A DNA stretch of 64,000 nucleotides from assembly GCA_965205505.1 (NCBI GenBank), contig CBDBHB010000009.1, positions 1,152,001 to 1,216,000 on the forward strand, written 5' to 3'. How positions within the stretch are numbered: position 1 is the first letter of the stretch; every line of letters starts with the position of its first letter. Under the pieces are notes generated by a model. It did no database searches and was not told the DNA's origin. It worked only from the letters and a program-made list of their open reading frames with translations. Source of the DNA: Acidobacteriota bacterium (lineage in GTDB: Bacteria > Acidobacteriota > UBA890 > WLXD01). Shown here in pieces: positions 36,482-41,516 of the stretch. The translations under genes and the position numbers were made by a program.

Positions 36482-38203
36482 ATGAAGAAGCTGTGCGGGA
36501 TTTGTTGGGTGATCTTGGCTGTTGTGGGCTGCGCGCCGGACCAGCCCGGCGCGTCTTCGGTTGACCGTGTCTTCGTCGACGGCAGGGTTTGGACCGGCGA
36601 CGAGGAGCGACCGATCGCGCAGGCGTTGGCGGTCGCCGGGGACACGATCGTCGCGGTGGGCACAACGTCGGAGATCCGCGCTCTCGTTTCGTCTGATACG
36701 GAGGTTGTCGACCTCGCCGGGCGCCTTGTCGTGCCGGGATTTCAGGACTCTCACATGCACCCCCTGTTTCGAGCGGTTGATGGGCTCGTGCTCGACGGTG
36801 CGGAGACGTTGGCCGAGATCCAACGTCGGGTGTCGGAGTACGCCGGCAGCCACCCGGACGCGCCGTGGATCACCGGCATGGGCTGGGCCTATGCAGCCTT
36901 CCCGGACAACACTGTCGACAGGAAGTACATCGATGAGATCATGCTCGACCGGCCGGTGTATCTGACCTCACGCGATGGTCACATGGGGTTCGGTAACTCC
37001 AGGGCGCTGGCCGATGCCGGGATCACTGCCAATACTCCCGATCCTCCGAACGGACGCATTATCAGGGACGCGAGCGGAGAGCCCACCGGCGAGCTGCAGG
37101 AAGCGGCGCAAGGCCTGGTGAGATCTCAGATCCCGCCCCCGACGGCCGAGCAGCTGTACGACGACCTGATCGCCAACATGGCCGCGGCGGCGGCCGTGGG
37201 CCTGACTACCGTGCAGGACGCGGGCACGTCGTTGGATCAGGTTCCGCTGTATGAAAGGGCGGCCGCCGAAGGAGCGCTGAAGCTGCGTGTCCGACTCACG
37301 CCCCGTATCTCGTTCGATGGCGACGATGCGTCAGGCAACGTCGAGAGCGCCGAGGATTCGACCCCGCCCGTTCCTGCTGAGTACAAGGCGCTGCGTGACC
37401 GCCTGGCCGGGCCTCTGGTCGAGCTCAGCTCCGTGAAGGGCATGCTGGATGGAACGATCGACGCGAAGACGGCGGCGATGTTCGAGCCATACGTGGGTGG
37501 CGGCGGCTCGGGGCTCCCGTTCTGGGACCAAGATGAGCTCAATAGCATCGTGGCGTCTTACGACCGAGACGGATTTCAGGTCGTGCTGCATGCGATCGGC
37601 GACAGAGCGATCAACACGGCGCTGAACGCGTTCGAGTATGCGCGGGACGTCAACGGGACGTCGGGTCGGCGGCATCGAGTCGAACACGCGGAACTGCCCA
37701 GGCTGTCCGATCTCGAGCGGTTCAGAGAGCTCGGCGTGGTGGCATCGACTCAGCCGATGTTTGCGCATCCGGATGCCACCGTGCTCGAGAACTTCGCGGT
37801 GTTGCTGGGGCCCGAGAGGGCGCAGCATGCAGATTCCTTCTCGTTGTACGACGACAGTGGTGTAGTGCAGGTGTTCGGTAGTGACTGGCCGGTGTTCACG
37901 TTCGACGTGCTAAAGGGGATCGAGGTAGCCGTGACGCGGACGACCGACAGCGGCACGCCGGCCGGAGGCTGGTATCCGGACGGTCGTATCTCGGTCGATG
38001 CTGCGTTGCGCCACTACACCGTCGATGCCGCATACGGAAGTCTTCAGGACGACGTCAGGGGCACGCTGGCGCCCGGCATGTGGGCCGATTTCGTCGTGCT
38101 CTCGCGAGACATCTTCGAGATTTCCCCTACGGAGATTTCTGAGACGAAAGTGGTGCTGACTGTGATGGGCGGCGACGATACGTATCGAAGCGAGGCTTTC
38201 TAG
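36482..38203 (+). CDS. Amidohydrolase 3 (YtcJ-like) lipoprotein
   Basis: PGFQDSHMH, DGH, HAIGD, RVEH, GSDWP and ADFVVLS motifs. Confidence 0.9.
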   Translation: MKKLCGICWVILAVVGCAPDQPGASSVDRVFVDGRVWTGDEERPIAQALAVAGDTIVAVGTTSEIRALVSSDTEVVDLAGRLVVPGFQDSHMHPLFRAVDGLVLDGAETLAEIQRRVSEYAGSHPDAPWITGMGWAYAAFPDNTVDRKYIDEIMLDRPVYLTSRDGHMGFGNSRALADAGITANTPDPPNGRIIRDASGEPTGELQEAAQGLVRSQIPPPTAEQLYDDLIANMAAAAAVGLTTVQDAGTSLDQVPLYERAAAEGALKLRVRLTPRISFDGDDASGNVESAEDSTPPVPAEYKALRDRLAGPLVELSSVKGMLDGTIDAKTAAMFEPYVGGGGSGLPFWDQDELNSIVASYDRDGFQVVLHAIGDRAINTALNAFEYARDVNGTSGRRHRVEHAELPRLSDLERFRELGVVASTQPMFAHPDATVLENFAVLLGPERAQHADSFSLYDDSGVVQVFGSDWPVFTFDVLKGIEVAVTRTTDSGTPAGGWYPDGRISVDAALRHYTVDAAYGSLQDDVRGTLAPGMWADFVVLSRDIFEISPTEISETKVVLTVMGGDDTYRSEAF

Positions 38204-38475
38204 TGGCCTGTAACAGATGATCGTTGCATATCGCAGATGGGATTTGCGGGTGAGATCAAGGCGCGGTGAGGAAGGCGATGCATTGGGCATCGTCGACGAG
38301 GCGCAACGCCGATATCGCCCGCAACCGCCCATCTGTCCGGAGGATGGCGGCGAAATCGGCCCGTCTGCGGCGTTGCTCCTCCTCGACGATGGGCAAACAT
38401 CGTCTCGTCGTCGCGCCTGGCATCCGGACCCATTTCGCCACCACGATATGCAACGATCATCTGTTACAGGCCACT
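38200..38475. mobile_element. About 278-bp two-armed palindromic MITE-like element, copy 1
   Basis: Perfect 32-bp TIRs at 38202-38233 and 38444-38475. The left CTAG supplies the amidohydrolase stop; the right CT|AG is split by the IS. Confidence 0.88.
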
Positions 38476-38489
38476 TCTATGAGAAGGCC

Positions 38490-38735
38490 TAGTTCGGTCA
38501 AGGGCAATGTGGTGCCCAGCGAAGAATCGATCTGCACGCCATGCTCCTATTCGCACTCTGGTGGACGAGGATTCAGGTCGTCCGGTGCATTCTGGGGTCC
38601 GTCCCGATTCGAGGCGCTGCAATCTAGCTGCCGAGCTCGAAGCTCGTAGTGACCTTCGCAGTCGCCCGGACCGGGCGGTCAGATCGATAACCGTTGGGTC
38701 GCGTCGCCCTACCGACCTCCTGGTTGCGGGTTAGT
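38490..38735 (-). ncRNA. Putative bridge RNA / seekRNA of the IS1111 element
   Basis: A CUGCGA/UUGCAG stem encloses an internal loop carrying AGGUCACUA and GCUAG either side of a CGAGC-UUCGA-GCUCG hairpin. Both loop strands match the reconstructed target. Confidence 0.75.
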
Positions 38736-39782
38736 TCATGCTGCTGAAACCTCTACAGGTGCGCGCAACGGTTCGTACTCGTCTCCACTCAGCCACAGTC
38801 GGTGCAGCACAACGGCGAGCTTACGGGCGACAGCAACTGCTGCCTTTTTGTTGCCATGAGGACCACCGCGTCCGGCCAGCTTGAGCCCCCAGCGTCTGAG
38901 CTCAGTATCGGGCCCGAAGGGGCCCAGGATGTAATGCGCCGAGCCCACCAACAGGCGTCGGAGCATTTTGTCGCCCGCCTTGGTTATTCGTAGCGCAGGG
39001 TCCTTGTCCCCCGACTGCCGTTTCTTCGGTCTCAGTCCCAGGTACGGGCCCACGGCTCTGGAGGTATTGAACCGCTCCGGCTCCTCGAGCGTCAGCACAT
39101 ACGCCAGTGCGGTCAGAGCTCCGACCCCGGCCACTTGCTGGAGCTGCTGTGTCTCCGGGTATCGCCCCTGGCACAGCTGCACGATCTGACGCTCGTATTG
39201 CTGGATGTTGCCCGTCAGCATGGCGATCGTTTCAAGCACCGGCTCGAGCGCTCCCTTGAGCCGCTCCGGTATGTGCTCTGGCGCGGTGCGCGCGAACGCC
39301 GGCGTCGAGCACCTGGGAATACGACAACCGGCCGACTTGACCGCACCACGCACATGGCTCACCAACTGCGTGCGGCTCTTTACCAGAGCATCTCGGCTCC
39401 GAATCACGGCTAGATCCGCTCGCGCTTGTCTGCCTCGATGCTGCACCGTCTTAAGCAGCTTTGGGTCCATTCTGCCCACTCGTGCCAGGTGCTCGGCATC
39501 CAACCGGTCGGTCTTGTCGTGCTCGCCATAGATCAGCTTCAGCCGCCTCGGGTTAGCCACCAGCACCTCATGACCCAGTTGCTTCAACTGCTCACTCATC
39601 CACGGCGAGTGCGTTCCAACCTCCAGCACTACTCGAGCGGGCTCCTCGCACCCGAACCGCCTCGCCAGCCCCTCCGGGCTCGTCCTCACCCGCCCTTCCT
39701 CCATCACCCTGCCCTTACTGTCGAGCACGCACATACGGCTGTACCGGTCGCTTACGTCCAGTCCAATCGTTACACTCCTCAT
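38736..39782 (-). CDS. IS110-family DEDD recombinase/transposase
   Basis: IGLDVS, VVLEVG, KTDRLDAE, GVG-LTA, YLGLRP--RQSG, ITKAG and VAVARKLA motifs. Confidence 0.96.
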   Translation of the reverse strand: MRSVTIGLDVSDRYSRMCVLDSKGRVMEEGRVRTSPEGLARRFGCEEPARVVLEVGTHSPWMSEQLKQLGHEVLVANPRRLKLIYGEHDKTDRLDAEHLARVGRMDPKLLKTVQHRGRQARADLAVIRSRDALVKSRTQLVSHVRGAVKSAGCRIPRCSTPAFARTAPEHIPERLKGALEPVLETIAMLTGNIQQYERQIVQLCQGRYPETQQLQQVAGVGALTALAYVLTLEEPERFNTSRAVGPYLGLRPKKRQSGDKDPALRITKAGDKMLRRLLVGSAHYILGPFGPDTELRRWGLKLAGRGGPHGNKKAAVAVARKLAVVLHRLWLSGDEYEPLRAPVEVSAA

Positions 39783-39879
39783 CGGCCAACCTCCTTGGGC
39801 TTCGAGCCCGTTACGTTTGAAGAAACGTTTGCAGAGCCGTCAGGCTACTGCGTTCAGGAGGTTGGCCTTCTCATCTCAT

Positions 39880-39924
39880 CTAGCAGGCCTTGGCGGAAGT
39901 GTGGCGGACCTGGTTGCCTGCTAG
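39880..39924. repeat. Collapsed 45-bp copy of the CTAGCAGGCC-type element
   Basis: CTAGCAGGCCTTGGCGGAAGTGTGGCGGACCTGG resembles the TIR at 42504 and is closed by GCCTGCTAG. Confidence 0.75.
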
Positions 39925-39962
39925 GTCTGTCGAATTGTTTTGATCATCCTTTGGAGCCACCG

Positions 39963-41516
39963 ATGCCCGGACATCACCGCACGATCGCGCTTGCCATATC
40001 AGCGTTGCTGGCGGGCTGCAGTGGCGGCACACAAAACCCGTTTGCGGACAAGCTCACCAACGTCGATCCATCGTGGGCGGTAACTGCCGACGAGGGTTAC
40101 GAGTGGGCGCTGGTCAAGGACGCCAACCTGCCGGCGATGACCGGTAGCCCGGAATGGAACAACTACGTCGGGTTCCTGGAAGACAAGCTCCTGGAGTACG
40201 GCGTCGTCGACATGCACCGCAACAGCTGGATGTACGACCGGTGGTCCACAACGAAGGACAACAGCGGCTGGTCGCTGGTTTCAGATGGGGAGCCGGTGCG
40301 AGTAGCTCACTACGCCATGAACTCCGGCAACACCGGCCCCGAGGGGATCACGGCCCAGATGATCTACTACGACCACGACAACCCGCCCGACTCCATCGAG
40401 GGCAAGATCGTGGTCTTTCCGACGCGGCCGCACCCGGAGCCGCCCTACGACGACTACTACATCAAGAACTTCACCTTCAACGACTACGAGTGGCGCGCCA
40501 ACGACGACACGTATTGGGAGCTATTCGAGTTCGTGCCACCGGAGTTTTCCATCACCTTCGATATCTGGTGGCAGCTGCGGCAGAGCTTGTGGCGGATCGC
40601 AGTAGAGGGAGGTGCGGCGGGTCACGTCACCGTCTACGACATGGCCTTCGAGCGCACTGAAGGACTGGTGGCCCGGCCGATACCACCCCTGTACCAGTTG
40701 CCGGGGCTGCAGCTGAGTCGCGAGGATGGCGCCAAGGTGATCGCGGACGCCAGGGCGGGCAAGACGGCGACGCTGCGGCTGGAGGCCACGGTCGAGGAGT
40801 CGGAGGCCTACCAGACGATCGCCTACCTTCCGGGTCGCGACTACGGCACACCTGACGACGAGCAGATCCTGCTGATCAACCACACCGACGGTCCGTCGAT
40901 TACGCAGGACAACGGTGCGCTGGGTCTGCTGGCGATCGTCAAGTACTTTTCCAATATCCCGCGGGAGCATCGGCCGCGAACGCTCACCGTCTTCCTCGAC
41001 AACCGCCACTACTATCCAGGACAGGAGCGCGCGGCGCATGAGGTGAGCTGGCTGGAGCGCCATCCCGAGGCCAAGGAGCCTCTGGTGGGCATCATTCAGG
41101 CCGAGCACATGGGCGAGAACGACTACCGCGAAGTGGACGGCGTGGTGGAGCCGGTGGGGCTGGCCGAGCAGTCGTATCTCTGGTCGCGCAACAACCCGGT
41201 GCTCATCGACGCCGCGATCGCCGCCGCCCAAGAGCATGGCTGGGAGCGCGTGCAGGTGGCGGTACCCGAGCGTCCGGGAATTAACGACGGCCTGCAGCAG
41301 GTGTGGTGGGGGGTCGGATCCCGAGCGCAGCGGGGCTGCGCCACGTGCCTCGATCTACCCGGCTACGGCCTCGGCGGGTTTCTTGGTCTGTATTGGACAA
41401 CCGCGTCGGGTATCGAGCGCTGGAACAAGGGTCTGTTCGAAGACCAGGCACACACGATGACCCAGCTGACTGGCGTATTGATGACCGCTGACCTGGATGA
41501 AATCCGGCCTGAGTAG
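39963..41516 (+). CDS. PA-domain / M28-like Zn-peptidase-fold lipoprotein
   Basis: LAGC lipobox; SGNTGPEGITA, GKIVV, NHTDGP...DNG and AEHMG motifs. Confidence 0.6.
   Translation: MPGHHRTIALAISALLAGCSGGTQNPFADKLTNVDPSWAVTADEGYEWALVKDANLPAMTGSPEWNNYVGFLEDKLLEYGVVDMHRNSWMYDRWSTTKDNSGWSLVSDGEPVRVAHYAMNSGNTGPEGITAQMIYYDHDNPPDSIEGKIVVFPTRPHPEPPYDDYYIKNFTFNDYEWRANDDTYWELFEFVPPEFSITFDIWWQLRQSLWRIAVEGGAAGHVTVYDMAFERTEGLVARPIPPLYQLPGLQLSREDGAKVIADARAGKTATLRLEATVEESEAYQTIAYLPGRDYGTPDDEQILLINHTDGPSITQDNGALGLLAIVKYFSNIPREHRPRTLTVFLDNRHYYPGQERAAHEVSWLERHPEAKEPLVGIIQAEHMGENDYREVDGVVEPVGLAEQSYLWSRNNPVLIDAAIAAAQEHGWERVQVAVPERPGINDGLQQVWWGVGSRAQRGCATCLDLPGYGLGGFLGLYWTTASGIERWNKGLFEDQAHTMTQLTGVLMTADLDEIRPE

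Follow-up and report, generated by a model that had tools for sequence, protein, structure and literature searches.

A putative bridge RNA of an IS1111-group insertion sequence and the 10-bp motif, found mostly at the tips of a palindromic repeat, that it would read

The window analysed here is a stretch of 64,000 nucleotides (nt) from an Acidobacteriota genome (assembly GCA_965205505.1, contig CBDBHB010000009.1), which is G000:C9:1152001-1216000 in the genome's own coordinates; positions given without a contig name refer to this window. The minus strand at 38476-39881 holds an insertion sequence (IS) of 1406 bp that belongs to the IS110 family and has the anatomy of the IS1111 group. The element carries a transposase gene and, in the non-coding region 3' of that gene, a segment that would encode a bridge RNA (or seekRNA). 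Its outer parts are the following.

38476-39881, minus strand: IS1111-group insertion sequence, 1406 bp, delimited by mapped junctions; the genome has 27 copies of full length (98.8-100% identical) and 6 partial ones
38736-39782, minus strand: DEDD transposase/recombinase gene, 348 amino acids (aa), with a GLRPKKRQSG motif, identified by Pfam PF01548 and PF02371, NCBIfam NF033542 and alignment to ISCro4 and IS621
39875-39881, minus strand: left-end terminal extension of 7 nt, AGATGAG in the transposase sense, whose first two bases are the core AG; relatives have AGATGGG and variants in the same place
39864-39874, minus strand: left subterminal inverted repeat ATGAGAAGGCC, conserved in relatives
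38479-38489, minus strand: right subterminal inverted repeat GGCCTTCTCAT
38476-38478, minus strand: right-end extension of 3 nt, AGA; in relatives the corresponding bases are AGA or GGA

The transposase has an N-terminal DEDD/RuvC-like domain (PF01548, DEDD_Tnp_IS110; E = 1.1e-17) and a C-terminal PF02371 domain (E = 5.7e-17), and it matched the NCBIfam model NF033542, named 'IS110 family RNA-guided transposase', with 205.5 bits against a cut-off of 140. Its C-terminal part aligned to the transposases of ISCro4 (9t56) and IS621 (8wt6), including the SG of the GLRPKKRQSG motif. The best IS110-family match in a plasmid collection was 36% identical, the matches there carried only generic IS110-family names, and no close named relative was found in that collection. 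A protein search returned five transposases that were 77-92% identical to this one (P0002-P0006).

Read in the transposase sense, the element starts with AGATGAG-ATGAGAAGGCC and ends with GGCCTTCTCAT-AGA, and the two subterminal inverted repeats are perfect over their 11 bp. The non-coding DNA around the gene measures 99 nt upstream versus 260 nt downstream. Siddiquee et al. (2024, PMC11187229) described as hallmarks of the IS1111 family subterminal inverted repeats of about 11-13 bp, a left extension of 7 bp (in some cases 6) with a right one of 3 bp, a longer non-coding region downstream, and a transposase of 330-350 aa with the motif GL-P----S(T)G in its C-terminal part. Every feature tested here fits the IS1111 group, an assignment that is based on the anatomy, the length of 348 aa and the GL-P----S(T)G motif. 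An initial annotation of this DNA had made the same assignment, which is borne out by the subterminal repeats, the 7-nt and 3-nt extensions, the downstream non-coding region and the Pfam and NCBIfam matches. The coordinates that it gave for the element and for the loop matches, hairpin and AUAGGAG heptamer described below were all correct on re-check.

Because the dinucleotide CT precedes both junctions (the 2-nt core, AG in the transposase sense), the element boundaries are ambiguous by 2 nt, and 38476-39881 is one valid convention. Deletion of this span gives ...ACAGGCCA-CTAG-CAGGCC..., and the claim that excision restores CTAG holds, since ...ACAGGCCACT then joins AGCAGGCC... directly. The sequences on the two sides of the element are as follows.

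38468-38475, plus strand: AGGCCACT as the left target half, which forms the tip of a palindromic element and includes the core CT; invariant from -8 to -1 in the 27 full copies apart from one with T at -5, and represented by 109 empty AGGCCACTAG sites
39882-39883, plus strand: right half of the target, AG, as at 28 of 30 right junctions
38200-38475, no strand assigned: copy of a 278-bp palindromic repeat that resembles a miniature inverted-repeat transposable element (MITE) and whose end is the target; in the genome 59 copies are nearly full length, BLAST gave 289 pieces, and the terminal repeat was matched 145 times
39880-39924, no strand assigned: 45-bp palindromic mini element CTAGCAGGCC...GCCTGCTAG adjoining the insertion site, its first two bases being counted with the IS in the convention of the initial annotation

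Copies of the element were found in the genome as 33 BLAST pieces, 27 of which were full length (98.8-100% identity) and 6 partial. In the orientation of the window, the left flank of the full copies was AGGCCACT in 26 and AGGTCACT, with T at -5, in one, while on the right +1 was A in 26 and +2 was G in 25. When the partial copies were included, all 31 left junctions read AGG[C/T]CACT (30 AGGCCACT, one AGGTCACT) and 28 of the 30 right junctions read AG, the remaining two being AA and CA, the latter after an extra CATCT repeat. Outside this motif the full copies differed (-9: C in 23, T in 2, G in 2; +3: C in 10, A in 9, T in 7, G in 1). This conservation of the flanks is far beyond chance, and on the right side the target beyond the core is only AG. 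The flanks of other copies had been expected to share the left motif followed by AGC; the left motif and the AG are indeed shared, but the C at +3 is not selected. One copy, at G000:C9:2702236-2703637, has an extra CATCT between its end and the target AG, with the terminal pentamer three times in a row.

Sites that match the target and hold no IS were also counted. There were 109 empty AGGCCACTAG sites in the genome, compared with about 13 expected from base composition. Occupancy differed with the base at -5: 30 sites with AGGCCACT were occupied and 109 empty, one site with AGGTCACT was occupied and two were empty, and none of the AGGACACTAG sites was occupied while 87 were empty (C versus A at -5, Fisher p = 2e-7). 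Where -8 was not A, no site was occupied and 36 were empty (Fisher p = 8e-4). Both p-values overstate the difference, because the sites are related copies and not independent. In RNA-library run X16, which comes from another sample, a contig of 1281 nt (aligned to 38419-39699 of the window) crosses the left junction of the IS with the flank AGGACACT and not AGGCCACT. Discrimination against AGGACACT at -5 is therefore not absolute across samples.

The 278-bp repeat has terminal inverted repeats of about 34 bp that end in CTAG, and most of the empty AGGCCACTAG sites are its tips. Twenty of the 27 insertions have an end of this repeat on their left; the other seven lie in other contexts and share only the 10-bp motif, which argues that the motif, and not the repeat as such, is recognised. 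The proposal that the target is the end of a resident palindromic element is thus correct for the 20 insertions at repeat tips and does not extend to the seven found elsewhere with the same motif. Sequences like the mini element at 39880-39924 come after AGGCCACTAG at other loci as well. A genome-wide search for an autonomous, transposase-bearing partner of the 278-bp repeat found none. The only long pair of its terminal repeats (3129 bp) was considered as such a partner and rejected, since it encloses a CBM9/DUF5916 gene and no transposase. A second set of CTAG-ended repeat tips is present genome-wide (for example at G000:C9:129733), with AGGACACTAG at 87 sites and AGGACATTAG at 7, none of them occupied by the IS in this genome. 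A terminator scan gave a stem with a T-run at 39902-39932, overlapping the mini element.

Downstream of the transposase gene, the non-coding region contains a predicted target-binding loop.

38613-38666, minus strand: predicted loop for target binding in the bridge RNA, with the two guide strands on either side of a hairpin and a stem closing the whole, from the minimum-free-energy fold and from RNAalifold on 16 sequences; invariant in 27 copies
38647-38655, minus strand: predicted 5' guide strand AGGUCACUA; the homologous strand in relatives is the reverse complement of core and right flank (transposase sense)
38632-38646, minus strand: distal hairpin CGAGCU-UCG-AGCUCG, from the fold; its length varies in relatives, as for a spacer
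38623-38631, minus strand: predicted 3' guide strand GCAGCUAGA; the homologous strand in relatives is left flank and core (transposase sense)

The minimum-free-energy fold of the 265-nt minus-strand RNA includes the closing stem, the loop and the hairpin. In the closing stem, GGCGACUGCGA, i.e. GGCG(A)CUGCGA (38656-38666), pairs with UUGCAGCGCC (38613-38622). A stem that encloses two loop strands around a hairpin had been described from the window alone, and both this fold and the consensus fold of the relatives contain it. The 5' strand AGGUCACUA has the same sense as the plus strand AGGCCACT|A and therefore would pair with the opposite strand, with one U.G wobble. The wobble position had been said to be the one that varies among the element ends, and the empty sites agree (AGGCCACTAG 109, AGGACACTAG 87, AGGACATTAG 7). 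On the other side of the hairpin, CUAG (38624-38627) can pair with CT|AG of the plus strand, i.e. with the core and AG. A longer match of GCUAG (38624-38628) to the opposite strand of the right flank had been proposed; its CUAG part is backed by the insertion sites, but the G at 38628, which fits the C at +3 of this copy, is unselected across the copies. The span covered by the two loop strands together, -8 to +2, is the span over which the flanks are conserved. Published IS1111 seekRNAs have the same strand order, in which the match to the top strand comes 5' of that to the bottom strand.

To compare this loop with those of related elements, a phylum-wide search of 401 genomes was used, G000 among them. 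Transposases at E ≤ 1e-70 were found in 19 other genomes, one of which (G166) was left out, and a single-protein scan of genome contigs added one locus from a metagenome-assembled genome (L031). The usable relatives had transposases 43-58% identical to that of this element. Their inverted repeats all read ATGAG[A/G/C]AGG.. and its complement, their left extension was AGATGGG or a variant of 6-8 nt, their right extension was AGA or GGA (3 nt), and their core was AG or AA. Both ends could be placed at 20 related loci from 14 genomes, and these formed the covariation set.

The non-coding regions of all 20 loci had the same stem, GG[C/U]GACUGCG ... AU[U/G]GCAGC[G/A]CC, enclosing a 5' and a 3' strand with a hairpin between them whose length varies. 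RNAalifold on 16 sequences predicted 18 pairs, 10 of them with compensatory changes, and kept the closing stem, so the fold suggested for this region is supported by covariance. In the relatives the 5' strand is the reverse complement of the core and right flank in the transposase sense (L085, ACGACCUGCUG; L082, UAAUCGCCUGG; L074, AGCCGACUUC), and the 3' strand is the left flank and core (L078, CGAGAGCGAG; L076, CCACGGAG; L087, GUCCGAUAA). A change of the core from AG to AA is mirrored in both loop strands (L087, L074). For 18 representatives (this element and 17 loci), the summed guide-flank score was 263, compared with 155 ± 9.3 when labels were permuted, and none of 20000 permutations reached 263. 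The covariation of loop and flank sequences that the initial annotation had called for among homologues is therefore present. Seven loci with one end not found by pattern were left out of the permutation test (L063, L065, L067, L070, L071, L073 and L075). Five of them were inspected after the test; L067, L070 and L071 fit in the 3' strand and L073 in the 5' strand (8/8), while L063 and L075 had too little flank to judge and L065 was used for no claim. This comparison is the decisive evidence for reading the two strands as guides: the predicted loop strands of the relatives follow their own, different flanks.

A second predicted module lies closer to the right end of the element.

38544-38597, minus strand: predicted donor-binding module, with a stem UGCAC/GUGCG conserved in 16 sequences and a heptamer that tracks the right-end extension and core

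The module is made up of CCCCAGA (38591-38597), the stem strand AUGCAC (38585-38590), a hairpin (38563-38583), the stem strand GUGCGA (38551-38556) and AUAGGAG (38544-38550). All relatives have ...CCCA-N-C-AUGCAC-[hairpin]-AGUGCG[A/G]-AU[G/A]GAA[G/A]C downstream of the target loop. Eleven loci from 8 genomes combine the heptamer AUGGAAG with CATGGA|AG, four loci combine AUAGAAG with CATAGA|AG and three AUAGAAA with CATAGA|AA. The agreement of the heptamer with the right-end extension and core is exact in 18 of the 20 related loci, the exceptions being L080 (one wobble) and L083 (no fit), and the tentative reading of AUAGGAG as a donor guide is supported by this family-wide covariation. On the other side of the module, CCCA in the 5' donor strand matches the left-end TGGG in most relatives. 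The complementarity of this strand to the left end is partial: its changes follow the left end in G129 (CCUUA with TAAGG) and L069 (CUCA with TGAG), whereas neither the element studied here nor L081 shows such covariation, and a matching 5' donor strand is weakly supported. The donor-binding bases of IS1111 RNAs are often in multi-loops (Durrant et al. 2024, PMC11208160).

The copies in the genome also bear on the state of the element. Ten of them keep the intact 348-aa frame. A frameshifting deletion of 4 nt at 39514-39517 is common to 12 of the 27 full copies and one of 1 nt at 39373 to five, with one copy carrying both. The same lesions are found at different loci, and defective copies have therefore spread, presumably in trans. 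The region of the predicted RNA loop is identical in all 27. Two copies on contig C6 (C6:11751 and C6:191362) have an identical left flank of 45 nt and differ in the other flank; two more (C6:424494 and C6:512432) have an identical right flank of 45 nt and again differ in the other. Such pairs point to duplicated segments or to copies that have recombined with one another.

The anatomy, the insertion-site consensus, the structure and the guide-flank covariation across relatives are observations, and an explanation that would join them is the following. The 3' non-coding region would encode a bridge RNA that reads both strands of the target: its 5' loop strand AGGUCACU(A) would bind one strand at AGGYCACT|A and its 3' strand CUAG the opposite one over the core and AG, and between them they would specify the 10-bp site AGGYCA-CT-AG. 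The U opposite the target G would be a tolerated wobble. In the second module, AUAGGAG would read the right-end extension and core (CATAGA|AG) of the circularised element. Because the 10-bp motif is the terminus of the repeat of about 278 bp, most insertions lie exactly at repeat tips and always in one orientation. In line with published work on ISEc11, ISPa11, ISKpn4 and IS621, the element would be excised as a circle, the RNA would be transcribed and bound by the transposase, and strands would be exchanged at the core. The explanation predicts that AGGCCACTAG (C) and AGGTCACTAG (T) would be used about equally, both far more than AGGACACTAG (A), and that a scrambled site would not be used. 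Overall, this is very probably an active or recently active IS1111-group element with a putative bridge RNA that reads a 10-bp motif found mostly at repeat tips. The suggestion of a natural RNA-guided parasite of a repeat family, with a guide-target pair that can be read from the DNA, is likewise supported by the conserved loop stem and the covariation.

A promoter at the joined ends of a circle is known in the IS1111 family (Siddiquee et al. 2024, PMC11187229), and one short sequence near the right end is of interest in this respect.

38496-38501, minus strand: hexamer TTGACC, similar to a -35 box and located 20 nt from the right end; relatives share CTTGAC here

The right inverted repeat of nearly all relatives is preceded, at a distance of 14 nt, by CTTGAC or TTGACC, and the conserved CTTGAC may be the -35 of a promoter that is completed by circle formation. 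Contigs from two RNA-library runs cover the IS, although such contigs can show neither transcription nor RNA ends nor strand. Among the sequencing-run contigs aligned to the window, no joint of an empty site or of a circle junction was found.

Several points weigh against guidance by this RNA. The initial annotation had pointed to an 8/9 match of the loop to left flank plus core with a possible G.U wobble; the match and its position are correct, but alone it is not significant, as 420 of 5000 shuffles of the 260-nt non-coding region reached the wobble-tolerant score somewhere. The 3' strand of this element matches over only 4-5 nt and has no discriminating power. In the donor module, the 5' strand CCCA mismatches the left end TGAG, and AUAGGAG makes 6 of 7 matches to CATAGA|AG and needs a G.T wobble for the seventh. 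The covariation has misses, with no match of the 5' strand in L078 and weak ones in L079, L069 and L087, and with weak matches of the 3' strand in L066, L074, L084, L082 and L072. The IS beside AGGACACT in the X16 contig would require a U.T mismatch. A scan of 37500-40500 against Rfam 15 gave no match at E up to 1, and a consensus scan of 38400-39950 found no sigma-70-like promoter in the linear element.

Some of these points would also be expected if the protein itself chose the target by reading the sequence or the hairpin structure of the repeat, without pairing of an RNA, and the loop matches were coincidental or secondary. Most sites are the tips of a palindromic element, the loop match of this element has no significance alone, and the copy beside AGGACACT is not expected to pair with the guide at that position. 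However, the seven sites outside the repeat share nothing with the others except the 10-bp motif, in the relatives the loop strands vary together with the flanks, unrelated as these are, to a degree that no permutation reached, and published IS1111 members require their RNA and can be reprogrammed through it. Recognition by the protein alone appears very improbable when these points are considered together. The conserved flank could also have arisen without repeated independent insertion, if the IS and its flank had been duplicated or recombined as a unit or if AGGCCACT were part of the IS. The identical 45-nt flanks of the two pairs of copies on C6 would agree with such an origin, yet the sequence beyond -8 and +2 differs in many contexts, 109 AGGCCACTAG sites exist without an IS, and the ends of the relatives lie at the same 7-nt and 3-nt distances from their inverted repeats with unrelated flanks, so that there is even less reason to expect this origin. 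It is just as hard to believe that the element is a decayed relic with an RNA module that no longer functions and copies that are fossils: although about 16 of the 27 copies have the shared frameshifting deletions and both donor-side strands are imperfect, 10 copies keep the frame open, the copies are 98.8-100% identical with an invariant RNA loop region, and the presence of frameshifted variants at many loci indicates recent spread.

If the RNA does guide insertion, its wobble position might have a further role. It is possible, but rather unlikely, that AGGUCACU has in its U a degenerate guide position by which a single RNA takes both the C and the T variant of the tips, that this position and the AG-only right side together turn the element into a hyperparasite of broad range with several families of CTAG-ended repeats as hosts, and that the frameshifted copies with an intact RNA module ride non-autonomously on the 10 intact ones. 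The tolerance at this position may reach further still, given the copy beside AGGACACT in another sample.

Similar elements have been described. In anatomy and RNA this element is like ISEc11, ISPa11, ISKpn4 and ISPst6 (PMC11187229), which also have a downstream non-coding region, subterminal repeats and 7-nt and 3-nt extensions, and in whose seekRNAs the top-strand match is also 5' of the bottom-strand match and the two overlap at the insertion point. A repeated and potentially folded target is likewise found among the published seekRNA elements, with ISPa11 directed to repetitive extragenic palindromic (REP) sequences and ISKpn4 to attC (PMC11187229). What sets this element apart from the four is its target, AGGYCACT|AG, which marks the end of a 278-bp palindromic repeat and has only 2 nt specified beyond the core on one side. 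As in the bridge RNA of IS621 and the IS110 group (PMC11208160), there would be a target and a donor module, each with two strands that read opposite DNA strands and overlap at a 2-nt core. Unlike in IS621, the RNA here would lie 3' of the gene with the strand order reversed, and the predicted donor strands flank a stem-loop instead of a simple internal loop; the likeness between the two proteins is confined to the C-terminal domain (E = 6e-8). For 93% of IS1111 elements, Durrant et al. (2024, PMC11208160) predicted that the right end contains a bridge RNA.

Landing sites that are an end or a palindrome of another repeated element also have precedents. IS4321 and IS5075 target the terminal repeats of the Tn21 family, IS1111 of Coxiella inserts in the QMITE2 element, a MITE (PMC10969869), and ISPpu9 and ISPpu10 target REP or conserved intergenic sequences, ISPpu9 being directed to REP. 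The present element is like these in its choice of landing site and differs from them in host lineage, repeat family and target sequence, and here the code can be read directly and checked on 31 junctions. An RNA-guided parasite of a repeat family is therefore a known concept, as the REP, Tn21 terminal repeat, attC and Coxiella MITE cases illustrate, and the mechanism would be the one described in 2024, with nothing new in it. A literature search that did not extend to the supplementary lists of ISfinder elements and predicted RNAs in the two 2024 papers, where a close relative may already be included, found no paper on this repeat family or target.

What the locus offers is a clean natural data set on how guide RNAs of the IS1111 type read DNA. 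In a single genome there are 31 junctions and 109 empty cognate sites, besides 87 near-cognate sites in which one guide position differs, and 14 other genomes supply reprogrammed loops. Such data bear on the tolerance of wobbles and mismatches and on the minimal guide length, which are relevant to the engineering of bridge recombinases. They also document one mobile element that uses another repeat family as a landing pad.

In the four other genomes of the same genus, no transposase match was found at E ≤ 1e-40. The closest relative in a related genome is in G011, which belongs to the same order (C1:3908161-3911885; L033, L037); it is 63-68% identical and is split by about 2.7 kb of inserted DNA. 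In the window, the IS and the repeats adjoining it are located between a gene of the Amidohydro_3 family (36482-38203) and an open reading frame at 39963-41516, which had no Pfam match and has a lipoprotein-like start.

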